Source of the DNA: a bacterium
GTDB lineage: Bacteria > Omnitrophota > Gorgyraeia > Zapsychrales > Zapsychraceae
DNA length: 64,000 nucleotides
Assembly: GCA_030429765.1 (NCBI GenBank)
Contig: JAUIER010000003.1
Coordinates: forward strand, 80,402-144,401
Direction of reading: 5' to 3'
The notes beneath the pieces are model-generated. The model had not been told where the DNA came from. It worked only from the letters and a program-made list of their open reading frames with translations, and made no database searches. Numbering within the stretch: the stretch's first letter is position 1; every line of letters begins with the position of its first letter. Positions 24,102 to 64,000 of the stretch are shown one piece after another. The position numbers and the translations under genes are program-made.

Positions 24102-25370
24102 ATGGCATCCGAAGATTTAAGAGAAAAAGTAAACAGGTATATGATCAACAACACGGAGTTCTTGAAGGTCAAGGACACCATGAACGAGGATCAACTGAGG
24201 ATGTTCGTCAATCGGGCCATCGAGGATATGATGGACGAGAAAAATATCGAAATCCCCTTTGAACAGCGGGCGGAGCTGATCAAGTCGCTGGTCAGCGCGG
24301 TGATGAGCTTAGGGCCATTGCGTCCACTGATGGAAGACGAGACGATCACCGAGGTCATGATCAATGGATGCGATACCATTTACATCCAGCGTTACGGAAA
24401 GATTGAGAAGGTTGATATCAAGTTTGACAGCAACCAGCACTTAGCCCACACGGTGCAGAAAATTCTTGCCGGTTCGCAGAGTAATAAGCGTGTTGATGAG
24501 TCATCGCCGTATGTTGATTTCTCTTTGCCTGACGGATCACGGGTCAACGTTATTCTTCCGCCATGTTCGACGATGGGGCCGGTCGTTACGATCCGAAAAT
24601 TTAAGGATGATATCGGAACTGTTGAGCATTTGCTGGATGTTAAGGAGCTCAACGAGGAGATGGCCACGTTGCTAATTGCCGCGATGAAGGCCAAATTCAA
24701 TGTTATATTTTGCGGGGCGACGGGTTCGGGTAAGACAACCTGTATGAATGTGTTTTCGACACATATTCCAGAAGAAGAACGGATTATCACGATTGAGGAT
24801 ACCCCGGAGTTAAATCTCCGTCAGGATCATGTTGTGTCGCTGCAAACCAAGCCGGCTAACATCGAAGGCAAGGGTGAGATTACCATGGCTGAGTTGTTTA
24901 CCAATTCGCTTCGTATGCGTCCGGACCGGATCATCATTGGTGAGATTCGTGGCGAGGAAATGCTGGATTTAATCCAGTCGATCAGTTCCGGTCACAGTGG
25001 GTCGCTCGCTATCGTTCACGCGGAGTCACCGCTGGATTGTTTTGACCGGATGGTGACCATGATGCTGCTCACGGGAATTCGATTGAGCACCCAGGAGATC
25101 CGCCGTCAGGTGGCCCGAGCGGTGGATATTATTGTGCACATCGAGCTTTTCAATGACGGGGTTCGCCGCATCCAGAACATCACTGATATTGTCTGGAATG
25201 ACGAGAAGAAGGAAGTGGAGTTGGTCGATATATTCCGGTTTGATCAAACTGGACGGATTGTCGACGGGATCGTTGAGGGTGACTGGACCAAGAATCGAAA
25301 GCCGCCGTCATTTATGTCTAAATTTGCCAAGCACAGGGTGGAACTCCCGGAAGGATATTTCGATAAGTAA
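24102..25370 (+). CDS. CpaF/TadA/VirB11-family secretion ATPase (orphan in this window)
   Basis: ...VDESSPYVDFSLPDGSRVNVILPP...IRKF...; Walker A GATGSGKTT; Walker B ...ITIEDTPEL; His box GHSGSLAIVHA. Confidence 0.8.
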   Translation: MASEDLREKVNRYMINNTEFLKVKDTMNEDQLRMFVNRAIEDMMDEKNIEIPFEQRAELIKSLVSAVMSLGPLRPLMEDETITEVMINGCDTIYIQRYGKIEKVDIKFDSNQHLAHTVQKILAGSQSNKRVDESSPYVDFSLPDGSRVNVILPPCSTMGPVVTIRKFKDDIGTVEHLLDVKELNEEMATLLIAAMKAKFNVIFCGATGSGKTTCMNVFSTHIPEEERIITIEDTPELNLRQDHVVSLQTKPANIEGKGEITMAELFTNSLRMRPDRIIIGEIRGEEMLDLIQSISSGHSGSLAIVHAESPLDCFDRMVTMMLLTGIRLSTQEIRRQVARAVDIIVHIELFNDGVRRIQNITDIVWNDEKKEVELVDIFRFDQTGRIVDGIVEGDWTKNRKPPSFMSKFAKHRVELPEGYFDK

Positions 25371-25372
25371 TC

Positions 25373-26566
25373 ATGTATTGGTCTAAATATTTTATACCCA
25401 CACTCAAGGAAACGCCCGGCGGAACCGAGGCCATCAGTCATCAACTGCTGTTGCGGGCCGGTCTGGTGCAGATGCTCACGTCCGGGGTCTATTCGTATCT
25501 TCCGCTCGGATTACGCGTACTGTCGAATATCGAAAATATCATTCGTGAGGAGATGAACGCAGCGGGCGCAAATGAATTGTTATTGCCCAGTCTGCATCCG
25601 CTGGATATATGGAAGCAGACGGGACGGGATGAAACGCTCAAGGACGTGATGATTTCGTTTAAAGACGGCAAGGGACGCGATATGTGTCTGGGGCCTACGC
25701 ATGAAGAAATTATTACGGATGTTGTTCGGAATCACGTGCAGTCTTATCGACAGCTGCCGGTGACGCTGTATCAGATTCAGACCAAGTTCCGCGATGAACT
25801 GCGGCCGCGGTTCGGCATTGTGCGGGCGTGTGAGTTTATCATGAAGGACGCTTACAGCTTTGATCGTGATGTCGAAAGCATGCAAAAAAATTATCAGATC
25901 ATGTACGAGGCGTATCAGAAAATTTTCAAGCGGCTCGAGCTGGATGTGGTGATTGTTGAGGCCGATTCCGGCGCGATGGGCGGAGATATTTCCCACGAGT
26001 TTATGGTCCCCGCGGCGATTGGTGAGGATGAGGTCGAGGTCAACGGTCAAAAGCAGGTGGCGATGGAGCTGGGTCATATTTTTCAATTAGGGACCAAATA
26101 CAGCCAATCGCTCGGCGCTAATTTTCTGGATGAAAACGGCAAGAGTCAGCCGATTATTATGGGATGTTATGGTATCGGCGTCAGCCGGGTAATCGCCGCG
26201 ATTATCGAGGTGATGCACGACGAGAACGGTATTATTTGGCCGTCACAGGTCGCGCCGTTTCAGGTCGAACTCCTGCCGATTTATAAATCGGAATCCGATG
26301 AGGCCATGCAGCTGGCGCGGCAGTGTTATGACGAGTTAACGGCTGCCGGAGTTGATGTTTTATGCGACGATCGCGATGAGACCGCTGGTAAAAAGTTTAA
26401 AGACGCTGATTTGATCGGTATTCCGTTGAGGGCAACGTTCGGCAAGCGAAATTTGGCGGAGGGTAATGTCGAGCTGAAGTTTCGTAAGTCAGGTGAGACG
26501 GTGATGATTGACAAATCATCGGCAGCTGCGAAGATCCTGGATGTTCTCAAGCAAGGCCATGCATAA
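25373..26566 (+). CDS. proS: Prolyl-tRNA synthetase, short form lacking the INS editing domain
   Basis: Class II motifs ...FRDELRPRFGIVRACEFIMKDAYSF... and ...GCYGIGVSRVIAAIIE... The 397-aa length is about 170 aa shorter than INS-containing bacterial ProS. Confidence 0.85.
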   Translation: MYWSKYFIPTLKETPGGTEAISHQLLLRAGLVQMLTSGVYSYLPLGLRVLSNIENIIREEMNAAGANELLLPSLHPLDIWKQTGRDETLKDVMISFKDGKGRDMCLGPTHEEIITDVVRNHVQSYRQLPVTLYQIQTKFRDELRPRFGIVRACEFIMKDAYSFDRDVESMQKNYQIMYEAYQKIFKRLELDVVIVEADSGAMGGDISHEFMVPAAIGEDEVEVNGQKQVAMELGHIFQLGTKYSQSLGANFLDENGKSQPIIMGCYGIGVSRVIAAIIEVMHDENGIIWPSQVAPFQVELLPIYKSESDEAMQLARQCYDELTAAGVDVLCDDRDETAGKKFKDADLIGIPLRATFGKRNLAEGNVELKFRKSGETVMIDKSSAAAKILDVLKQGHA

Positions 26567-54922: not shown

Positions 54923-55537
54923 ATGACGATGAAAGTTAAGATGTGTGGGATTACCAATCATGAAGACGCGCAGAAGGCGGTTTATTACGGGGCCTATGCC
55001 GTCGGATTTATTTTTCATAAAAAAAGTCCGCGCTACGTATCACCGAGTAAAGCGCGAAAATTAATCGAAGGATTGCCGCCGTTTATCGTGCCGGTCGGTG
55101 TCTTCGTTGATCTCAAGGAAAAGGCGGTGCGGGATATCTGCAAGTTCACCCGGATCAAGACGGTCCAGTTTCACGGTGATGAAAAGCCGATCTACTGCAA
55201 GCGCTTTTCCGATTACAAGATCATCAAGGCCTTTCGGGTCAATGACATGTTTGATTTTGTCGGCGTCAAGAAGTACAAGGTCGACGCCTATCTGTTTGAT
55301 ACCTACCAGGAAAATGTCCTTGGGGGGACGGGAAAGACGTTCAACTGGGACCTGCTCAAAGGGCATAAGTTTGATAAACCCGTCATTCTCTCCGGCGGAT
55401 TGACCTCATCCAATGTGGCCGAAGGGATCGCCGCGGTGGATCCGTACGCCGTGGATGTCTCCAGCGGCATCGAGAAGTCGCCGGGGATCAAGGATCCCCG
55501 CAAAATCCGGGCGTTCATGAAGGCCCTGGACGTCTAA
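54923..55537 (+). CDS. trpF: Phosphoribosylanthranilate isomerase
   Basis: MTMKVKMCGITNHEDAQKAVYYGAYAVGFIFHKKSPRYV... Confidence 0.88.
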   Translation: MTMKVKMCGITNHEDAQKAVYYGAYAVGFIFHKKSPRYVSPSKARKLIEGLPPFIVPVGVFVDLKEKAVRDICKFTRIKTVQFHGDEKPIYCKRFSDYKIIKAFRVNDMFDFVGVKKYKVDAYLFDTYQENVLGGTGKTFNWDLLKGHKFDKPVILSGGLTSSNVAEGIAAVDPYAVDVSSGIEKSPGIKDPRKIRAFMKALDV

Positions 55538-55659
55538 ATCCCCGCACACTATCTGTTTTGTATTGATCCGATGGATCGGTCCGTCGAGGTATCCCGGACT
55601 GTCCCGGACACATTTTTGAAGCATAGTTGAAAGCTACTCATTTGTAATGACTTACAGGC

Positions 55660-55687
55660 TTGTCCCCTGTGGATAACTATGTTATAT
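55660..55687 (+). promoter_or_regulatory. Candidate promoter positioned to start the ncRNA candidate
   Basis: TTGTCC (55660-55665), 16-nt spacer, TTATAT (55682-55687). The predicted +1 is about 55694-55696, exactly where the 12-nt closing-stem arm begins. Confidence 0.4.
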
Positions 55688-55694
55688 TTGAATT

Positions 55695-55927
55695 AAGCCG
55701 ATAAAGGTAAACCCGGGGAAACCCGGGGACTTTCGAGTCTTACCGACTTGGAACTGCGCGGTTATGAGGCGCGCGGACAAAACCAACAGACCTAAATTGT
55801 TAACGACTACGAGGCCCGTTCGGGCGTTCAGCGCCGGGGCACACAATCCAAGCAGAAGAGTCTAGGACAAGATGGTGGCTGGGTTGCCGAAGTGCGGTGA
55901 GGGAGACATCCTCATCTTTATCGGCTT
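55695..55927 (+). ncRNA. Structured non-coding RNA candidate of unknown class (about 233-nt core closed by a 12-bp helix)
   Basis: 5' AAGCCGATAAAG (55695-55706) is perfectly complementary to CTTTATCGGCTT (55916-55927). The interior is rich in local hairpins (CGCGG-ttatgagg-CGCGCG, GCCCG-ttc-GGGC, GGCG-ttcag-CGCC, TGAGG-gagacat-CCTCA) and carries a duplicated ACCCGGGGA. No ORF of meaningful length covers it. It is bracketed by a candidate promoter and an intrinsic terminator. Confidence 0.5.
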
Positions 55928-55946
55928 ATTTTTCTCTCTTACCCAT

Positions 55947-55978
55947 ACCGTAAAAACACCCGTTTTTGCGGTTTTTTT
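55947..55978 (+). terminator. Rho-independent terminator downstream of the ncRNA candidate
   Basis: CCGTAAAAAC-accc-GTTTTTGCGG stem followed by TTTTTTTGTG. Confidence 0.65.
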
Positions 55979-56105
55979 GTGTCTACGGTGTTGGTTCTGG
56001 TAGAATAGTAGGAATTAACTGCGCGGGGCTTCACGAACTTCCAATCCTGCAGCAGTTTTTCCAGTGTGATTAAGCAAGCAAAATTAAGAAATATTTCGAT
56101 TGTAA

Positions 56106-56492
56106 ATGACTAACAATTCAATATTTTCATTTCCTCCTGATTTTGAAGTGGAGTATAAATTTTTGACAGTGGACGAGGCCGGTAGAAAAACTGGAACTCC
56201 CTTTCAGGGTTACCGGAGCAATTGGCTATATGAAGGGGATGACCCAATTGCCGACGGCATTTATATGATTCATCCTGAATTTCTGGATGAAGACGGAAAA
56301 AGTTTTCAAAAGAATAGGAAGGTTCCTGCAAAAGGCCTGGCCAGAATGGTAGTAGTCAATCCAGCTAAGAGACCTTATCATCAAAAGAAAATAAAAGTTG
56401 GAACAAGAGGTTTTTTTGTCGAGGGAAATCGGAAAGTGGCAATGGCAACCGTAACGAAGGTGCTTGGTTTGCATACCAATAAAACAACTTAG
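56106..56492 (+). CDS. Hypothetical protein (128 aa) in AT-rich islet
   Basis: ORF MTNNSIFSFPPDFEVEYKFLTVDEAGRKTG... with no recognisable motif. Local AT-richness differs from the flanks. Confidence 0.4.
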   Translation: MTNNSIFSFPPDFEVEYKFLTVDEAGRKTGTPFQGYRSNWLYEGDDPIADGIYMIHPEFLDEDGKSFQKNRKVPAKGLARMVVVNPAKRPYHQKKIKVGTRGFFVEGNRKVAMATVTKVLGLHTNKTT

Positions 56493-56542
56493 TAGAAAAT
56501 TCTCATTCCATAACAGGGATAGGATTTTTCAAAGATAATTGA

Positions 56543-57247
56543 ATGACGTATATTAGAATTTTTGCCTTGGTGCTTAGCGTTATTTTAACGGCCGGGTGTG
56601 CTACCGTTGTTCGGGATCAATTACCGGCAGTCCAAAAATTTTCGACATCTGAGGAAGCTTTCAGCGTATACGTGCTGAATCATGGATGGCATACAGGACT
56701 GGTGATCAGGCGTTCTGATATCCCTGACCATCTTTGTCCCGAAAGTGAAGATTTTGCTAAGTATGAGTATCTCGAAATTGGATGGGGCGATCAAGGTTTT
56801 TACCAGGCTCAGAAAATCACTTTGGGTATTACTATCCGGGCGATCTTTTGGCCGTCCAAAAGCGTACTACATGTGGTGGGATTTAATGGGTCAGTTGAGG
56901 CATATTTTGAAACCAGTGATATTGTACGAGTTGATCTTTCGGAACAGGGATTTAACAAAATATGCATGTTTATTCATGAAACGTTCAAGAGGGAGCAGGT
57001 TGATCTACGAGCTTCGTCTATCGGACCGGGTTTGTACGGGGATAGTAAATTCTACAGAGCTCGCGGGAGATACTACTTTCCTAAAACGTGTAATGTTTGG
57101 ACCGCAAGGGCCCTACGTAAAGGTGGTTGTCCGATAACACCTATTTACGCTGTGACATCCGGCAATACGCTGAATCAGACCAAGAAGTTTGGAGTAATTG
57201 TTAGGGAGTTCCTAGAGTCGTATAAAGCTTCAGGTAGAAAAAAATAA
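56543..57247 (+). CDS. Lipoprotein of unknown function (DUF2459-like)
   Basis: Lipobox ...LTAGC; ...NHGWHTGLVI... motif; 234 aa; AT-rich codon usage like the neighbouring ORF. Confidence 0.5.
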   Translation: MTYIRIFALVLSVILTAGCATVVRDQLPAVQKFSTSEEAFSVYVLNHGWHTGLVIRRSDIPDHLCPESEDFAKYEYLEIGWGDQGFYQAQKITLGITIRAIFWPSKSVLHVVGFNGSVEAYFETSDIVRVDLSEQGFNKICMFIHETFKREQVDLRASSIGPGLYGDSKFYRARGRYYFPKTCNVWTARALRKGGCPITPIYAVTSGNTLNQTKKFGVIVREFLESYKASGRKK

Positions 57248-57398
57248 GTGGATGGTCGAAGTCTCTCCAATCTTGAAAGAATTGGTATCAGAAATCCCTA
57301 AAGTAAAGCAGGGCATAAGTTTAGGTCGTAATTCATTATATTAGCGAAGAGGCCTGTCCCTTTTCGGGGACTGTCCCCTTTGGGGGAGCCGTTCGGGC

Positions 57399-57427
57399 TT
57401 GCCTATAATACTAATATATCGTATAAT
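57399..57427 (+). promoter_or_regulatory. Candidate sigma70 promoter for the giant ORF
   Basis: TTGCCT (57399-57404), 17 nt, TATAAT (57422-57427), about 50 nt upstream of the ATG at 57478. Preceded by overlapping alternative hairpins (57354-57386). Confidence 0.45.
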
Positions 57428-57477
57428 TAGTGTATTACTGGTTCCCCACCGTAAGCTTTAGTTTCCACCCATAGTCT

Positions 57478-60400
57478 ATGTTGATTTCAATCAAACGGCA
57501 TTTCCGTCATCCGTTGTTTTGCGCGTTGGTGTCGATGCTGACATGTCAGTTATCATTTGCTGTCCCTGGCGTTGCGTCTACGCAAGCCTCGCAGGGAGTG
57601 GCTCTGCCTGAACCCGGCACGCTGGTGATGCCGAGCGCCGATTTTTATGCCCCGGTCCTCAAAGGGGTTCAAATCCATCCCGACCAGCCGTTTCATTTTG
57701 AATTTATTGTCGATCAGGGCGATCAGTCGATTTCCTTAAGCCAACTGGAGGCCGAGTCGTATCGCTTGATCAAATATTTTATGGCCGCCCTGGCCGTGCC
57801 TGAGCAGGACATGTGGGTGAACTTATCGCCCAATGATCATGATCGGGCGATCCCCGACAAATTCGCCCTGACCGCTATGGGACGTGATCTGCTCGCGCAG
57901 GATTATCTGCTCAAACAATTATCGGCGTCGATGATGTATCCCGAACATCGGCTTGGTGAAGATTTCTGGCAACGCGTGCGGCACTTGGCCCATCAACGCT
58001 TGGGCGTGACCGACATTCCCGTCAACACATTCAATAAAGTCTGGATCGTACCCGAACGGGCCGTGGTGTATCAAGACGGATATACCGCGTATGTGTCCGA
58101 AGGCCGGCTCAAGGTCATGCTGCAGTCGGACTATCAAGCCAGCGCATCCAGCCCGATGGGCGCGGGCAATCCCGACGATTCCACCGACCGGTTAGCCCAG
58201 GACATTTATCGTGAAGTGATTATTCCGGAACTGGAGCGAGAGGTGAATACCGGTCGACAGTTTGCCCGTTTGCGCCAGATCTATCATTCGTTGATTCTCG
58301 CGACGTGGTATCGCGAAGTCCTTGAGGACAGTTTGATCAATCAAGTGTATGCCGGACAGAATAAGATCCATGGCATTGAGATCGACGATCCCCGGGCCAA
58401 AGACGCGATCTATCAGCAATACATGGACGCGTTTCGCAAGGGCGTCTACAACTACATCCGCGAAGACTATGATCAATTGAAGGATCAGGTGATCCCGCGG
58501 CAGTACATGTCGGGCGGGATGCAGATCGTGCCGCGGATAGAGATTACCGACGACGCGCGCTCCGTCCGCACGCGCGGAGATCTGGCGATGGTCTCCACGC
58601 AACTGAATCTGCGCGGTGCCAACCGCACGATTGAGATCGCGGCGGATCTCGACGACAGTATCTTTGCCGGGATGCGAAAGAACGGCCGGCCCAAGGTTCA
58701 GTTAACGCATGCGGATCACGCCGAGCTCAAGGGATACCGTCCGGATGGAGAGACGGTCACACTTTTTACCTCACTACGTCAGCGGGTATACGGCCTGGAA
58801 ATTTCCGATGAGGGCGAACTCACGCACGTTTATCCTAACAATAAAAAAGACAAACCGGTGGCTTGGGCCTGGATTCGTGACGACGCCGGCCGGCGGACCG
58901 GAATTGTCGTCGGAGACAAGCGGACGCACGCGTCGCTGGGATACGGAACAAGTGCGGTCAAGATTAACGGGTGGATCGACACGCCGATTATAGCAAGTCA
59001 GCAGCGGCAGGACGCGGCCTTGATCCGCATCGGTCCACAGGCCCTGGGTAAACGACAACTCTTTGCGGTGTTGCCGCCGGATGCGGCCGGCGAAACATTG
59101 GCGGTGCGCTATGAAGACGGTTTTCCGACGGCAGTTCGTCTGAGAGACGGGACCGTTGTTCCTGTTGGTCTGATCCGGAATCAGTATAATCAGGTGATCA
59201 AAGCCACGAACGGTTCGGCCGGTTTTGTTAAGCCGGATCGTGAGACAGCCACCAGCTACGAAAATATCCGAACGGATGCAGAGGGCATAGCGCGTTTGGG
59301 ATTCCGTCTCGAGCGAGTGGCCGACGGGGCCGGCTGGGCCAGTCTCCTGGTTGACCAATCAGTGGTGATCGCTCATGATATTTTTGATCAGCCGCGTCAC
59401 CAAACCTACGGACACGTGATCCGCAATCACCATGATGTCATCATTGCCGCCGCGTGGCGGGAACCCGACCAAGACCAACGGGAGGTAAACCCCAAGCCGT
59501 TGATGATCGTTCGCGATCTCCAAACACACCGGCCGAAGTACTCGGCGGCACCAACCAAATTCAAAGACACCGGCGACGCGATCGTGACCGGACGTCGTTT
59601 ATCGAAACACGGCAAGATTTATATCGGCGGACATTCGCTGAGTTTGGGGGCGACGTATGCCGATGCGCCGGTGGAATTGCTATGGCTGCCCAGCCAGGGT
59701 TATCTGCTGGTCGATGTCTTAAGTGAACGTGATCGTGAGGCGTTTGTGTTTGACTTGAATCGTGACGAAACCGTCACCGCCGAACAGCTAACTCTCGTCG
59801 ACAAATACCTGTCTGAGCTTGGGCTGGAATGGTATCTGGATCCGGCAGAGAAGGCGTATCGTTATGATCTCATCAATGAGTTGATGTCGGATCCGTTGTT
59901 CGCACAGCTGAATTTAAGATTATTTTCAACGCATCCGGCGGATTTACAGACCATTCAGTCTCAGTTGACTGTGCGCCGTCACATGCCGGTCAGGATTTGG
60001 GATCAGGCCCTGGATATCGCCGCCCGACGGATCGATCAATATAAACGCGATTATCCCGATCAGGTCGTCAACGGCAAGATTCCGATGCGGATCAAGCAGT
60101 CGATCATTCGCGATGTGTCGGACGAGGCCTGGTTGATGATCAATGCCGAACGTCCGCTGACGGAGAGCCCATCGGCTCAAATCTTTGAATCGTCGTCAAA
60201 CGAAACCGATGCGGCCATGACCAGCGATGGACCCACGCGGGCTGATATCGAACGGCTGTTCAAGGCGATTCTGGAAATTTACCGGTCCTACGCCGACGGT
60301 GAATTGGAGGACTATCCCACGGCGATGCGCCGGCTGGAGGCATTGGCCGAGCAGACCGCGTCGAATCCGGTCCTGCAGAGTTTTGTCCATGACCGGAAGA

Positions 60401-63400
60401 ATCCCATCCACGTGATTGAGTTCGGACTGGATGGTCAGTTGGTGGCGCGCGATAAGCTCGCGCAGTCCCTTCAGGATGACATCCGCGATATGGAGCTGGC
60501 CCTGGCCGGACTTCGATCGCTCGACGACACCGACCCCGCCCCGGTGACGGATGCGTATCCGGCCGAGATCAAATATTTTGAGTTAATCAATAAAGGACGC
60601 GGTTCGACGGATTCAGATGCCGCGATGGCGGGTATCGATACTTTTGTGGCTGAGCGGATCACACAATTGCAGGACGCGGTGACGGAACGTGAACAGGTGA
60701 CACCCAACACGGTTCGGCATGTCGCGGGGCTTTGGCTAAAAGCCCTCATCCAGGAGTGGGATTACGGCCGGAACATCGTTCACACACGGGCCGAGGCCGT
60801 CGAGATAGGGGAACGCCTGAACCGGGCGTGGAAGGCCGCCGGGTTCGACAAGGTTCGTTCATGGCCGGCGCAGGTGATGCTCATGGGCTCTCTGCAGGTT
60901 TCGGAAGACAAGTACTTTCAATTTGAAGATATGCAGGAGGCCTTGATCGAACATGCCACGCGGGAGGAAAAGATCTTGGCTTACTGGACCAAGGCGGTGC
61001 GCTCTGTCAGTCATCTCAGATATTACGGCAATCATCCGGAAGATGAATTTGAGGATCCGCTCGTCGATCAAACCGTCATTCAGGATACGGCGCGCAAATA
61101 CATCACCTTGCTGCTGGAAGACGCGCCCGAGAAGGCCACTCAAGATCAGCTGTGGGGATTGATCGTTTTGCTCGATCCGTTCATCTATCATCCTGACTTT
61201 TTAATTGATCAGTGGGCCAAGCATGCCTATAAGCAACCCAACGATCATGTCATGACCGCCAAGGTCCTCGACATTCTGAAGGATCTCAACGCGGAACAGC
61301 GGCAGCGATTCCAACAACTCGCCCGACGGGCGTTTGCGATATCGGATGACGAATGGGCGGCGGCTGGATTCCGGTCGCCGTACACAGACTTTATCATCCA
61401 TACCTTTAATGAACGACTGGACCACATGATGACTCAGATGTCGATCAAGTCCTCGAGTGAGTTCAGCGGGGATCACGTGCAGCTGATGGCCCGGTCCGAA
61501 GAATTTTTCGACGCCCATGTGGGATGGTATGCCTTAACGCGCGATCCCAGGGCGGTGCGCGAGATGATGTTCTCCAATAAACGGCATGCCCGTTATCCGG
61601 AGGCCGGTTTTCTGGGGCTGCGTCAGGCCATCGTCAAACGGCGATTGTTCAAGGCGATGGAACAAGATCCGCGGCATTACTATCGACGGGTCTTCGCGCA
61701 TCCATTGCTGGCGGATTCACCTAACTGGGGATTTTTAAGTGAGTTGTTGAGCGACGAGGCGATGATGGCCGATCCCGATGATATGACCGAACAGTTCCGT
61801 CGACGAATTGATCTAGCCATTGCTCAGGTGGGTTATCCTGGAATATCTGTATCCGAACAGGCTGCTCAAGATTTGCTTGCTGACTATGAACAGGGTTTTG
61901 ACGTGACGGAACGGATTGCCATTCCACGGATCAGCGTCTGGCTGATGCGTCACCAGATTCCTGTGTTTCAGTCTTATGAAATGCTAGCGGCCATCCACGT
62001 CGCCGCCGACAAGTGGCGAGCCAATTTCAATCAGACAGTGGAGCTTGAGGTTGGTGCCTTGATGAGCTTTACGAATGTGGTGGGGCTACCGATGTTTGGA
62101 TTTGAAGGATCGTGGACAGATGCGGAAGTGCAGACCGTTCGACGGATTATGGGGTGGTTGGATGGGGAAAAAGTCTCTACATTGAAAGGGTTGCAAGCTC
62201 GATTGTTGACATCTTCGGTAACATTTAAAAAGCGCGGCAGGGGATTCAGAGGCATTGCGGAGATCATACAAGGGATCATGCCGGCCGGTCCCCGTATACC
62301 TGGCGATAGACGCACAAACGCGATTCAGCTCGTCGACATTGATACAAGCTGGTTTACAGGGAATATCACATTCCCGATGATTCAGATTCTCAAGGAATTA
62401 TTGCTGGATCGGACGCAGGACAAGGATGTCATTGATGAAGACTACTTTGACTCACGAATTGCGGTGTTGGCCAAGATACAAGAGTTGTTAGAGCGGCTTG
62501 TCCTTCGGGAGCAGTCATTAATTGAAAACTTTGCGACAGCCTATCGCGCGCAATTGCAGGAAGAGCGTAGAACGTTGTTGTATACATGGCTGACCATGAT
62601 GCGCGGTGACGAAGAAATTTTAGATCTGGAACCTGATGATTTGTCGCACAGATTTACACTTTCAACGGATGATGTTTTGAAGGTATTAAGAGATTACTCT
62701 GAAGAGATCGATGACCGAGATCACGCGATGAAAGCCGGTGAGGCGTTTGAGAACAATCCGTATCATGAACCGCATTTTGATCTGATTGACAATCTGGAAC
62801 TGGCCGAGCGGTCGAATATCGTGATGATCGGGGCGGCGGAAAATCCGCAGGCCGGTTTGGCCTTCGCGATGCGCGGACATCATGTCAGGTCCATCACCAA
62901 GGATATCAAGGGGCCGACCGTGGAGGCGGCGCTGCAGGAGTCACTTGAGGCCGATATTTCCGGTCGGGGCGGACGGTATGTCACCAATCGGGAGACCGAC
63001 TATCTGGATGTCGACATCGACGCCGAATCGGTGGATGTGTATGTGGTGCCGGCGGTGCTCGACGATCCGCGCACCGTGCAGCAGGATTTGATGCTGGATA
63101 AAATGCTGCGCGAATTGCGGCCGGGCGGTCATCTGGTGCTGTCGTTTATCATCAATGCGTCGGGATGGGAGCGCTATGTCGAGCGGTTCGCGGCGTCACG
63201 CGGGTTTGAACTGGAGAAGACGTATGATTATACCGTGTCGGACGCGGCGGTGATCTATCGCGTTGTGCCGGATGCGGCCAGACAGCTGGCCGCCATGGCG
63301 TCGGAGATCGGCGCGGCCAATGATGAGGCCATGCTGGCGTTCAGTGAGTTTGACAACAAGATCGGGATCGATCCATTTTCCGGTCGTTTATCGGTGCTGT

Positions 63401-64000
63401 CCGATGAGCCGGTGTTTGTGCCGGCGTTTGAGTTATGGGCGGTGCGTCACGGTGAGACCGCCGGTAATGTTCAGCGCATCTTTCAAGGGGCGACGGACAC
63501 GTCGATCAATCAGTTGAATCAACGCGGACGCGAGCAGGCCGCAGAAGCGGCGCGCCTGATGTTTGAACAGCTCGAGGCCAAACTCAGGGCCGGTGATCAC
63601 GTTGTTATATTGACCAGTGAGTTCGCGCGGGCGAAAGAGACGGCGCAGGCCTTTGTGGATTTTGTTGAGGCTCAATTGGGGGATGCATCGAACTTAACCA
63701 TCGTCGAAGATGCCGGGGTCAATGAGATTGATTTCGGCGAACTCAACAATCTGTCCGAACAGGATGAGTTAACGGATCGTCAGCGCACGTTTATCGATCA
63801 GTATCGGTATCAGAAAAACGCGCGCGCGAAACCGGCCGGCGGCGAAAGCTATCTGGAATTGACCCAGCGGGTCCACCGATGGCTCAAAGAATTGAATCAG
63901 CGCTACGCGGACCAAACCGTGGTGATGTTTGGTCACGGTACATTTTTATCGGCCGTTCGGATGTTGACGGGGGATACGTCGATGAACGACGCCAGCGGTC
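57478..64000 (+). CDS. Giant secreted multidomain protein, 5' partial (at least 2174 codons, continues past the window end). The C-terminal visible part has a degenerate SAM-methyltransferase-like Rossmann region and a histidine-phosphatase (PGM/SixA branch) domain
   Basis: Reading frame 57478+3n contains no stop codon to nt 64000, verified by reading codon by codon. An in-frame TAG at 57472-57474 lies immediately upstream of the ATG. N-terminus MLISIKRHFRHPLFCALVSMLTCQLSFAVPGVASTQA is a signal peptide. Residues ...NIVMIGAAENPQAGLAFAMRGHHVRSI... and ...LRPGGHLVLSFI... (about 62.8-63.15 kb) resemble class-I MTase motifs I and III. ...ELWAVRHGETAGN... (63.44 kb) and ...VVMFGHGTFLSAV... (63.93 kb) are the RHGE and HG catalytic motifs of histidine phosphatases. 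It is absent from the supplied ORF track because no stop occurs in the window. Confidence 0.8.
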   Translation, partial: MLISIKRHFRHPLFCALVSMLTCQLSFAVPGVASTQASQGVALPEPGTLVMPSADFYAPVLKGVQIHPDQPFHFEFIVDQGDQSISLSQLEAESYRLIKYFMAALAVPEQDMWVNLSPNDHDRAIPDKFALTAMGRDLLAQDYLLKQLSASMMYPEHRLGEDFWQRVRHLAHQRLGVTDIPVNTFNKVWIVPERAVVYQDGYTAYVSEGRLKVMLQSDYQASASSPMGAGNPDDSTDRLAQDIYREVIIPELEREVNTGRQFARLRQIYHSLILATWYREVLEDSLINQVYAGQNKIHGIEIDDPRAKDAIYQQYMDAFRKGVYNYIREDYDQLKDQVIPRQYMSGGMQIVPRIEITDDARSVRTRGDLAMVSTQLNLRGANRTIEIAADLDDSIFAGMRKNGRPKVQLTHADHAELKGYRPDGETVTLFTSLRQRVYGLEISDEGELTHVYPNNKKDKPVAWAWIRDDAGRRTGIVVGDKRTHASLGYGTSAVKINGWIDTPIIASQQRQDAALIRIGPQALGKRQLFAVLPPDAAGETLAVRYEDGFPTAVRLRDGTVVPVGLIRNQYNQVIKATNGSAGFVKPDRETATSYENIRTDAEGIARLGFRLERVADGAGWASLLVDQSVVIAHDIFDQPRHQTYGHVIRNHHDVIIAAAWREPDQDQREVNPKPLMIVRDLQTHRPKYSAAPTKFKDTGDAIVTGRRLSKHGKIYIGGHSLSLGATYADAPVELLWLPSQGYLLVDVLSERDREAFVFDLNRDETVTAEQLTLVDKYLSELGLEWYLDPAEKAYRYDLINELMSDPLFAQLNLRLFSTHPADLQTIQSQLTVRRHMPVRIWDQALDIAARRIDQYKRDYPDQVVNGKIPMRIKQSIIRDVSDEAWLMINAERPLTESPSAQIFESSSNETDAAMTSDGPTRADIERLFKAILEIYRSYADGELEDYPTAMRRLEALAEQTASNPVLQSFVHDRKNPIHVIEFGLDGQLVARDKLAQSLQDDIRDMELALAGLRSLDDTDPAPVTDAYPAEIKYFELINKGRGSTDSDAAMAGIDTFVAERITQLQDAVTEREQVTPNTVRHVAGLWLKALIQEWDYGRNIVHTRAEAVEIGERLNRAWKAAGFDKVRSWPAQVMLMGSLQVSEDKYFQFEDMQEALIEHATREEKILAYWTKAVRSVSHLRYYGNHPEDEFEDPLVDQTVIQDTARKYITLLLEDAPEKATQDQLWGLIVLLDPFIYHPDFLIDQWAKHAYKQPNDHVMTAKVLDILKDLNAEQRQRFQQLARRAFAISDDEWAAAGFRSPYTDFIIHTFNERLDHMMTQMSIKSSSEFSGDHVQLMARSEEFFDAHVGWYALTRDPRAVREMMFSNKRHARYPEAGFLGLRQAIVKRRLFKAMEQDPRHYYRRVFAHPLLADSPNWGFLSELLSDEAMMADPDDMTEQFRRRIDLAIAQVGYPGISVSEQAAQDLLADYEQGFDVTERIAIPRISVWLMRHQIPVFQSYEMLAAIHVAADKWRANFNQTVELEVGALMSFTNVVGLPMFGFEGSWTDAEVQTVRRIMGWLDGEKVSTLKGLQARLLTSSVTFKKRGRGFRGIAEIIQGIMPAGPRIPGDRRTNAIQLVDIDTSWFTGNITFPMIQILKELLLDRTQDKDVIDEDYFDSRIAVLAKIQELLERLVLREQSLIENFATAYRAQLQEERRTLLYTWLTMMRGDEEILDLEPDDLSHRFTLSTDDVLKVLRDYSEEIDDRDHAMKAGEAFENNPYHEPHFDLIDNLELAERSNIVMIGAAENPQAGLAFAMRGHHVRSITKDIKGPTVEAALQESLEADISGRGGRYVTNRETDYLDVDIDAESVDVYVVPAVLDDPRTVQQDLMLDKMLRELRPGGHLVLSFIINASGWERYVERFAASRGFELEKTYDYTVSDAAVIYRVVPDAARQLAAMASEIGAANDEAMLAFSEFDNKIGIDPFSGRLSVLSDEPVFVPAFELWAVRHGETAGNVQRIFQGATDTSINQLNQRGREQAAEAARLMFEQLEAKLRAGDHVVILTSEFARAKETAQAFVDFVEAQLGDASNLTIVEDAGVNEIDFGELNNLSEQDELTDRQRTFIDQYRYQKNARAKPAGGESYLELTQRVHRWLKELNQRYADQTVVMFGHGTFLSAVRMLTGDTSMNDASG

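Follow-up and report, generated by a model that had tools for sequence, protein, structure and literature searches.

The window analyzed in this study is a stretch of 64,000 nucleotides (nt) from an Omnitrophota bacterium of the family Zapsychraceae (assembly GCA_030429765.1, contig JAUIER010000003.1, positions 80,402 to 144,401 of the forward strand). At its 3' end lies the greater part of a 6.8-kb gene for a protein of 2263 amino acids (aa), designated P0001. The protein belongs to a large family in which two conserved modules, the N and the C cap, occur together at the two ends of the chain and enclose cassettes that move between family members. The units of the chain are joined at a recurrent tetrapeptide, D-x-A-M (DxAM), and related genomes carry a family gene in the same chromosomal slot.

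The gene and its units

The window is part of the core chromosome, with genes for IF-2, NusA, PolA, glycogen synthase, Rho, RF1, PrmC, MurA and TrpG/D/C/F. From the ATG at 57478 to the window end at 64000 the plus strand is free of stop codons in frame +1 for 2174 codons, as a preliminary description of this DNA had stated; re-translation revealed no overlooked stop, and each of the other five frames contains 46-111 stops in the same interval. A stop codon two codons 5' of the ATG makes 57478 the earliest possible start. The GC contents at codon positions 1, 2 and 3 are 0.615, 0.39 and 0.635, alike in every 900-nt block, so the codon periodicity that had been proposed as a check is kept; other long genes of the window have a similar profile. 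The frame is absent from the listing of open reading frames (ORFs) for the reason supposed earlier, since it runs off the window edge. The statement that only antisense shadow ORFs were listed in its place was wrong: short overlapping listed ORFs sit on both strands. An identical 2263-aa product is on record on a 254,838-bp NCBI contig and in two independent Logan assemblies (SRR24442552, ERR3428548). From this product the gene would end at window-equivalent position 64269, 269 nt past the window, and these 269 nt encode the rest of a phosphatase unit, the seventh DxAM, the C-terminal module and the stop.

No frameshift relative to homologues was detected, thus the frame is not a string of small genes or pseudogenes. 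Together with the open frame, its periodicity and the identical independent records, this identifies the 6.8-kb frame as a real chromosomal gene of an Omnitrophota bacterium. An artefact, whether through a frame that is open but does not code, a row of pseudogenes or a chimera of the assembly, has a negligible probability: besides the frame statistics and the three independent records, positional orthologues exist in related genomes and a His_Phos_1 domain matches far over its threshold. A clear Shine-Dalgarno sequence before the ATG at 57478 was not found. The window holds no second family copy, and P0001 has no internal repeats. The features of the gene are the following, where MTase stands for methyltransferase:

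57399..57427, plus strand: sigma-70-like promoter candidate TTGCCT-17-TATAAT (10/12), from a consensus scan only, about 50 nt 5' of the ATG
57478..64000, plus strand: coding sequence, aa 1-2174 of 2263, continuing 269 nt beyond the window
57478..57588, plus strand: Sec-type signal peptide predicted from the sequence, aa 1-37, with n-region KRHFRH, hydrophobic core and a predicted signal peptidase I site between TQA and S
57589..58590, plus strand: N-terminal cap module, aa 38-371 (LPEPG...YMSGG), with DxAM site 1, DLAM, at 58579-58590
58591..60219, plus strand: cassette A, aa 372-914, with DxAM site 2, DAAM, at 60208-60219; recurs in P0003, P0009, P0010 and P0145
60220..60627, plus strand: short unit (132 aa), aa 915-1050, with DxAM site 3, DAAM, at 60616-60627; delimited by its two bounding DxAM sites
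60628..61764, plus strand: cassette B, aa 1051-1429, with DxAM site 4, DEAM, at 61753-61764; common to other members
61765..62730, plus strand: unit 5 (318 aa), aa 1430-1751, with DxAM site 5, DHAM, at 62719-62730
62731..63333, plus strand: degenerate Rossmann/MTase-like unit, aa 1752-1952, with DxAM site 6, DEAM, at 63322-63333; 37-40% identity with P0002-P0005
63334..64000, plus strand: histidine phosphatase (branch 1) unit, aa 1953 onward, cut by the window end; RHGET at 63445-63459, FGHG at 63928-63939

Family statistics in this study refer to 215 proteins and 84 loci chosen by similarity to P0001; the locus set of a genome scan, with one genome per species, consists of the 80 best of at least 596 genome loci. 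Within P0001, cassette A had no match in Pfam, NCBIfam or PDB, a profile search against PDB included. Neither the 132-aa unit nor unit 5 has a homologue among the 215 family proteins compared; unit 5 contains a sub-threshold Pfam match to DUF488-N3a at aa 1641-1709 (window 62398-62604; E=1.9e-4, 22.1 bits with a cut-off of 27). Cassette B is present in P0002-P0005 (two copies each in P0002, P0004 and P0005), P0032, P0035 and P0083. Nine divergent copies share an invariant H-x4-G-x-H-x-E (HLRYYGNHPE in P0001, 61012-61041, aa 1179-1188) and invariant D, W and P residues further on. This HxxxxGxHxE motif could be the metal site of an undescribed enzyme domain; a profile search revealed no PDB relative of cassette B. 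A wider search with the middle 1580 aa of P0001, limited by a word prefilter, recovered P0001 alone.

The last two units before the C cap are those that the preliminary description had recognized, and both assignments hold. The segment described as a degenerate Rossmann domain of the S-adenosylmethionine (SAM)-dependent MTase type has sub-threshold matches only (Anamorsin_N, E=0.18; NodS, E=0.61), its motif-I position reads MIGAAENPQAG and not GxGxG, and no MTase model of Pfam, as expected for a class I SAM-dependent enzyme, matched at E<=1. A Rossmann-like fold for aa 1752-1952 is plausible. The histidine phosphatase, claimed to be intact, matches Pfam His_Phos_1 (PF00300) at aa 1986-2161 (E=1.4e-28, 100.3 bits with a cut-off of 21.7). 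An alignment to PhoE (1EBB, E=4.7e-8) covers R-H-G, N, R, E and H, which we take to be the catalytic residues of PhoE; in P0001 they stand in RHGET, N, R (ARAKETA), E (EIDFGE) and H (FGHG). By sequence the cassette is a bona fide member of branch 1 (PhoE/CobC/PspA-like) with catalytic residues kept, and its activity is plausible. No substrate can be assigned, because the scores are far below every equivalog cut-off of the NCBIfam CobC/PhoE/PspA models (best 68.6 bits versus 162.9 for TIGR03162, CobC). Enzymes of the PhoE/CobC/PspA type are cytoplasmic proteins of about 200 aa, whereas this phosphatase sits in a 2263-aa protein predicted to be exported.

Six other loci keep the gene order glgA-coaE-rho-(rpmE)-prfA-prmC-murA-trpGDCF, followed by a homologue of the large gene. 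Four are from metagenome-assembled genomes (MAGs) of Omnitrophota (L003, L005, L013, L079), with Rho proteins of 83-88% identity to that of the window, and two are Logan contigs, which encode the closest relatives of P0001 (P0003 in L083, P0002 in L084). The slot after trpF holds a family gene in seven genomes, with different cargo in each. In L084, trpB-trpA are located a few genes after the family gene, which places the slot inside the trp gene string.

Two caps, mobile cassettes and a junction motif

A search of 5.8 billion proteins yielded more than 2,500 significant matches among 8,000 candidates scored. Nearly all matches cover just 15-18% of the query, approximately, at about 50% identity. 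In the BLAST map the common part is always query aa ~43-350, always found at subject residue 30-60, and a second common piece, query aa ~2200-2261, is located at the subject C-terminus. An exhaustive HMMER scan with the N-terminal piece identified 7,914 clusters at 50% identity, 6,069 of them at E<=1e-30; the 150 best matches are 420 to 5,358 aa long. P0001 is therefore not a one-off protein, as thousands of relatives exist. Likewise, the approximately 1750 residues reported to lack a recognizable motif include an N-terminal module common to thousands of proteins and cassettes recurring in other members. That the architecture could not be named was correct: no curated family of Pfam-A (2025) or NCBIfam (2026) names it. 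The current annotation of members follows whichever cargo domain is recognized, e.g., 'histidine phosphatase family protein'. The 80 best loci are all from Omnitrophota, allowing for bins labelled 'Planctomycetales' or 'Bacteroidales', and within this sample the family is restricted to the phylum.

The N module of about 320 aa directly follows the signal peptide and has the signature LPxPG...WVNLSP...GRDLLxQDYxLKQ...FNKVW...YFSGG. P0001 aa 43-350 shares 42-61% identity with all 119 listed relatives (phmmer E 1e-106 to 1e-133). In 38 diverse sequences the module has a mean column identity of 55% and 56 invariant columns, and the remainder of the proteins is unalignable. It is rich in aromatic residues and prolines and contains invariant Ser, Lys, Glu and Asp residues. 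The C module of about 60 aa, GGID[FL]...G..P.I.[NQD]I.P...LP, corresponds to P0001 aa 2206-2261, outside the window. No model of Pfam-A (2025) or NCBIfam (2026) matches either cap or the unassigned cassettes of P0001. An AlphaFold2 model of the N module (predicted local distance difference test score, pLDDT, 71.6; predicted template modeling score, pTM, 0.74) combines long helices with two beta-hairpin pairs; fold relatives at a significant level were not found (Foldseek against PDB, E>=0.42, and against BFVD, E>=0.2; profile against PDB sequences, E=0.77). A model of a short full-length member, P0158, had a pLDDT of 57.5, with just the first strands of the C module moderately confident; this member is atypical in having a transmembrane (TM)-like helix and an acidic linker.

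Both caps are present in 178 of the 215 family proteins. Local hidden Markov models for the two caps detected 101 ORFs with an N module in the 80 loci, and all of these that lie entirely inside their locus have a C module at the other end. Where an ORF has the C module alone, it is either truncated at the end of the locus or separated from an N-bearing ORF upstream of it. Family genes often stand in tandem, two or three in a row, and one MAG contains at least 10 of them.

The charged n-region and hydrophobic core that had been claimed for the N-terminus of P0001 are features of the whole family. Among 193 family N-termini, a median of 42 aa precedes the N module, the median net charge of the n-region is +3, a hydrophobic core is present in 95%, and 4-8 aa before LPxPG there is a site of the A-x-A type (AYAQ, AQAQ). 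Sec export of the family is well supported by these sequence features. Most members have no TM helices. In P0001 no further TM-like segment was detected, the sole other hydrophobic stretch being the end of the C module, which contains proline and charged residues.

Between the caps, cassettes recur in differing order and position from member to member. Cassette A is found at other positions in P0003, P0009, P0010 and P0145, and the His_Phos unit in 23 of the family proteins compared. The six syntenic loci illustrate the exchange (x, other unit; MT, MTase-like unit):

P0003 (L083): N-A-x-B-MT-C
P0002 (L084): N-B-x-B-MT-NUDIX-x-C
P0006 (L003): His_Phos and true MTases
L013: WD40 propellers
L005: kinase and MTase
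L079: MTase and HATPase_c

Recognized cargo across the family consists mostly of ordinary intracellular enzyme and signalling domains together with HEAT, WD40 and ankyrin scaffolds; a few members carry ART-PolyVal (PF18760) or DprA domains.

DxAM occurs 534 times in the 215 family proteins, 14-fold above the expectation of 36-37 (shuffles, 36.3 +/- 5.0), and is the sole highly enriched gapped tetrapeptide that does not derive from the single-copy N module. Swapping D, A or M abolishes the enrichment; the sequence logo reads D-x-A-M-[LVIT]-[AGST], and the flanks are unconserved. Elsewhere the motif is at chance level, with 18 occurrences versus 20.3 expected in the non-family ORFs of the same loci and 2 versus 2.2 in the other genes of the window. 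Up to 16 copies are present per protein. P0001 has seven (aa 368, 911, 1047, 1426, 1748, 1949 and 2194; 0.5 expected), which split it into eight units: N module, A, the 132-aa unit, B, the 318-aa unit, the Rossmann/MTase-like unit, the histidine phosphatase and the C module. The limits of these units coincide with the ends of the BLAST blocks common to P0002-P0006. Family-wide, 21.6% of the ends of high-scoring segment pairs lie within 10 aa of a DxAM, versus 4.9% at random (4.4-fold). Among 178 members the motif stands after the N module in 105, at a median distance of 18 aa, and before the C module in 65, at a median of 11 aa; in 13 of 25 His_Phos cassettes the last residues read ...PN(A/S)xPxxL..D.A[MLIVQ]. 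By its placement, DxAM appears typically to mark where each unit ends on its C-terminal side. In front of the C module the linker often has the form D.AM-x(6-10)-GGID, and the C module and the junction elements may be related.

Internal translation starts at the methionine of DxAM were considered and rejected: Shine-Dalgarno sequences are found upstream of 9% of these codons versus 11% of control Met codons, and at orthologous sites the M is exchanged for V, I or Q. As in addition the codon usage of D and A is close to background, the signal is at the peptide and not at the RNA level.

Reading of the architecture and its alternatives

Omnitrophota are uncultivated, mostly ultra-small bacteria that are thought to depend on or to prey upon other cells (PMC10066038; 10.1101/2023.11.21.568195; 10.64898/2026.06.07.730766). 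With modest confidence, we read P0001 as an exported cargo carrier or polyprotein with recombining cassettes. The protein would leave the cytoplasm via Sec, and both invariant caps would be handled by some conserved partner for further secretion, surface attachment or delivery. The cassettes would be exchangeable cargo; in P0001 these are two cassettes and two short units without an assigned fold, the degenerate Rossmann unit and a histidine phosphatase predicted to be active. DxAM would be a functional joint, most likely a processing site at which the units of a polyprotein are released, and at least a point of cassette recombination. The cargo would most plausibly act outside the cytoplasm of the producer, in the envelope, at the surface or in a partner cell, because a host-dependent lifestyle has been proposed for the phylum. 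Within this reading, action in or on another cell is a tentative assumption, and actual cleavage at DxAM is a somewhat more doubtful one; an effector role of P0001 is speculation. The strict requirement for three residues resembles protease sites more than passive linkers. In the model of P0158 the first junction (a DQAIL variant) is located in a low-confidence, apparently disordered linker, a context compatible with processing at DxAM.

Several observations weigh against an exported carrier that is cut at its joints. No conserved partner for secretion, proteolysis or immunity was found near the family genes in the 80 loci; the commonest non-family neighbor cluster, an HD/GAF protein, occurs in 10 of the 80, and the others reflect housekeeping synteny. 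The exact D.AM is missing in 40 of 178 complete members, some of which have D.A[LIVQ] variants. In one subfamily (P0048, P0078, P0107, P0119) a D-P-A-M-L is located inside the C module at a fixed offset (+26/27), which suggests that the motif can also belong to a folded unit. Much of the family cargo depends on cofactors or partners of the cytoplasm (radical SAM, kinases, PGK, pyruvate kinase, response regulators, helix-turn-helix domains) and is awkward for an exported protein, unless it reaches the cytoplasm of another cell. About 5-8% of the members have a strong TM-like segment directly after the N module (P0038, P0053, P0104, P0133, P0158, P0202 and others); by the predicted topology, their cargo and C module would be on the cytoplasmic side. 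The N module itself, for which we have a moderate-confidence model, is provisionally without a known fold.

The main rival explanation, which we consider fairly unlikely, is an intact multi-enzyme scaffold that resides in the periplasm or at the surface and serves the physiology of its own cell. Its caps would anchor or polymerize the chain, DxAM would be a structural linker or helix cap, and the family would be a smaller sibling of the multi-enzyme giants of Omnitrophota. The position of the gene among housekeeping genes with a promoter-like site of its own agrees with this explanation, as do the missing protease partner in the 80 loci and the DPAML within a C module, which indicates that the motif can be structural. 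The repertoire of cargo also matches that of giant proteins with signal peptides: according to two reports, MTase, HATPase_c, GNAT, radical SAM, NUDIX and HEAT domains are found in long proteins of Omnitrophota that begin with a signal peptide (10.64898/2026.06.07.730766; 10.1101/2023.11.21.568195). A structural linker, however, normally needs no invariant D, A and M with unconserved flanks at recombination boundaries, and enzymes dependent on ATP, SAM or NAD would, by general biochemistry, have no obvious supply of substrates in the periplasm. The cytoplasmic character of the cargo would be explained if the N-terminal hydrophobic segment remained uncleaved and anchored the protein in the inner membrane with the cargo facing the producer's own cytoplasm. 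The members with an extra TM-like segment after the N module fit such an orientation, and the literature reads giants that have TM segments only as anchored proteins with domains on the cytoplasmic face. The positive n-region before the core predicts the opposite, N-in/C-out topology, most members have an A-x-A site, and P0001 lacks a further TM segment; an anchored, inward-facing protein is improbable.

Known modular proteins provide partial parallels. In CdiA (VENN), Rhs (DPxGL) and MafB, a short motif marks the border of module swapping, and a variable extreme C-terminus is followed by an immunity gene. The family shares with polymorphic toxins (Zhang et al. 2012, PMC3482391) a short motif at the recombination borders, a conserved, trafficking-like N-terminal region with variable modules downstream, and many paralogues with tandem arrays per genome. 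That P0001 is a classical toxin of the CdiA, Rhs or MafB type, with DxAM in the role of VENN or DPxGL, is nevertheless highly improbable. The extreme C-terminus is conserved and not variable, the junction motif recurs up to 16 times, and no small immunity-like gene is conserved downstream: a 100-aa Zn-ribbon ORF is confined to three of the syntenic loci, where a housekeeping M20 peptidase accompanies it. RHS, haemagglutinin or filamentous repeats are absent, the listed cargo is mostly of the non-toxin type, and that of P0001 is a phosphatase and a degenerate Rossmann unit. A scan with the PADLOC models for anti-phage defence detected 0 families at E<=0.01. MARTX toxins have conserved N- and C-terminal regions that flank an exchangeable array of effectors, freed by cleavage at short inter-domain sites; they have glycine-rich RTX-type repeats and an internal cysteine protease domain and are secreted by a type I system without a Sec signal peptide. 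The resemblance is in architecture only, in conserved ends and a swappable middle; no Pfam or NCBIfam model for RTX/MARTX repeats or the cysteine protease domain matched P0001, and a Sec-type signal is present instead. Cargo proteins of the type IX secretion system (T9SS) of Bacteroidota combine a Sec signal and functional domains with a small conserved C-terminal domain that is read by the export and attachment machinery, and the gingipains are processed into several units. The family likewise has a Sec-type signal and a small conserved C-terminal module. T9SS cargo, in contrast, has no conserved N-terminal module and belongs to a different phylum, and the C-terminal 106 aa of P0001 had no Pfam or NCBIfam match to a T9SS C-terminal domain (Por_Secre_tail/TIGR04183 type) at E<=10. 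Polyvalent proteins of phages and conjugative elements, reportedly treated by Iyer et al. in 2017, are said to be very long strings of unrelated enzymatic domains. They are delivered together with DNA by mobile elements and have neither signal peptides nor caps. The gene of P0001, unlike theirs, is chromosomal, inside the trp gene string and without a phage or defence signal. By analogy, the family may work like MARTX, polymorphic toxins or T9SS cargo, but it belongs to none of these known systems, because every testable defining feature is absent.

The closest relatives in character are the giants of the same phylum, 'Archaeovorins' and related proteins, which are reported to have at least 10-20 thousand aa and mostly many TM helices (West-Roberts et al. 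2023, 10.1101/2023.11.21.568195; Nielsen & Lui 2026, 10.64898/2026.06.07.730766; Seymour et al. 2023, PMC10066038). Their N-termini are reported there to be without identifiable domains or to contain C39/S8 peptidases, and a surface or anti-host role was proposed. Giants and family have in common the signal peptide before strings of ordinary enzyme domains (MTase, HATPase_c, GNAT, radical SAM, NUDIX and PGM, with HEAT/WD40 scaffolds) and a cargo of high sequence uniqueness. The family differs in its length of approximately 0.6-5.4 thousand aa and in being mostly without TM helices. P0001, with 2263 aa, contains no dockerin/TSP3 or C39/SecA-like domain and no internal TM segment, which separates it from the 'Archaeovorin'/Dockerin giants. 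In a non-exhaustive search of the literature on Omnitrophota giants and related topics, the accessible text contained no description of the N cap, the C cap or DxAM.

If the caps and joints of the exported carrier are taken further, they would define a phylum-specific system of protein delivery and a new route of secretion and processing, an extension that we regard as unlikely. Dozens of polyproteins per genome would be exported and cut at D-x-A-M into single enzymes, possibly by the invariant N module itself, and a host or prey cell would then have the freed units, or the entire chain, displayed on its surface or passed into it, with the C module as sorting tag. Modular effectors of a new class would result, and such a system could account for the way in which these nanobacteria manipulate their partners. 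Should the caps serve as trafficking signals, these would be new, and if DxAM is a processing site, the use of polyproteins would be unusually extensive for a bacterium. Even conservatively, two large conserved domains are absent from the Pfam and NCBIfam versions searched. N cap, C cap and DxAM joints are three searchable marks that permit a genome-wide cataloguing of cargo, predict exact positions of cleavage and new termini, and define constructs for export and processing. The family thus offers a handle on how Omnitrophota act on partners and on what their long multi-enzyme proteins do.

Flanks of the gene

Upstream of the gene, window 55500-57480 forms an AT-rich islet with a GC content of 0.40-0.44 versus 0.50-0.59 in the flanks. 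It contains an orphan ORF of 128 aa (56106-56492), the single member of its cluster and recorded on the NCBI contig only, together with a DUF2459/TIGR02117 gene (56543-57247). The preliminary description had counted the neighboring islet in favor of an undescribed system. The islet is not part of a system with the large gene, as it is absent from the six syntenic loci that carry a family gene; it is probably a recent local insertion unrelated to the large gene. No tRNA and no Rfam match reaching its threshold was found in the islet. Just after trpF there are two below-threshold Rfam matches, a c-di-GMP-I-GGC aptamer at 55697-55748 (25.2 bits, gathering threshold 59) and a trpB motif at 55896-55983 (28.5 bits versus 59), both probably due to chance, and a strong terminator-like hairpin is located at 55947-55972.

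An alignment of window 57230-57480 with the 3' tails of L001 and L002 revealed a direct repeat that brackets the 6.8-kb gene:

57288..57347, plus strand: 5' copy of the direct repeat, 60 nt seen, 4 mismatches
L001 7076-7135: second copy, about 165 nt after the stop of the gene, outside the window

An exact 28-mer of the repeat occurs once in the window and in none of the other 80 loci; a metagenome scan for the 60-nt repeat found nothing. The Logan contigs begin and end at the repeat, and from these breaks of de Bruijn contigs the repeat is probably longer than the part seen. The repeat may have arisen by duplication of the leader or promoter region of a gene that follows, or represent the ends of a cassette.

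In three related genomes (L084, 8818-21642; L083; L003) the family gene is located between trpF and trpB-trpA, and about 10 kb of unrelated genes interrupt the trp string. There it is followed by a conserved Cys-rich ORF of 100 aa (CxxC...CxxC) and an M20/M28 peptidase; the Cys-rich ORF was undetectable in the 221 nt after the stop of the P0001 gene. Elsewhere in the window, a type II/IV secretion ATPase (T2SSE, 24102-25370) followed by a 397-aa ORF stands among housekeeping genes (24102-26566), and a 697-aa ORF at 490-2583 fuses glycosyltransferase domains of GT4 (group 1) and GT9 (heptosyltransferase).

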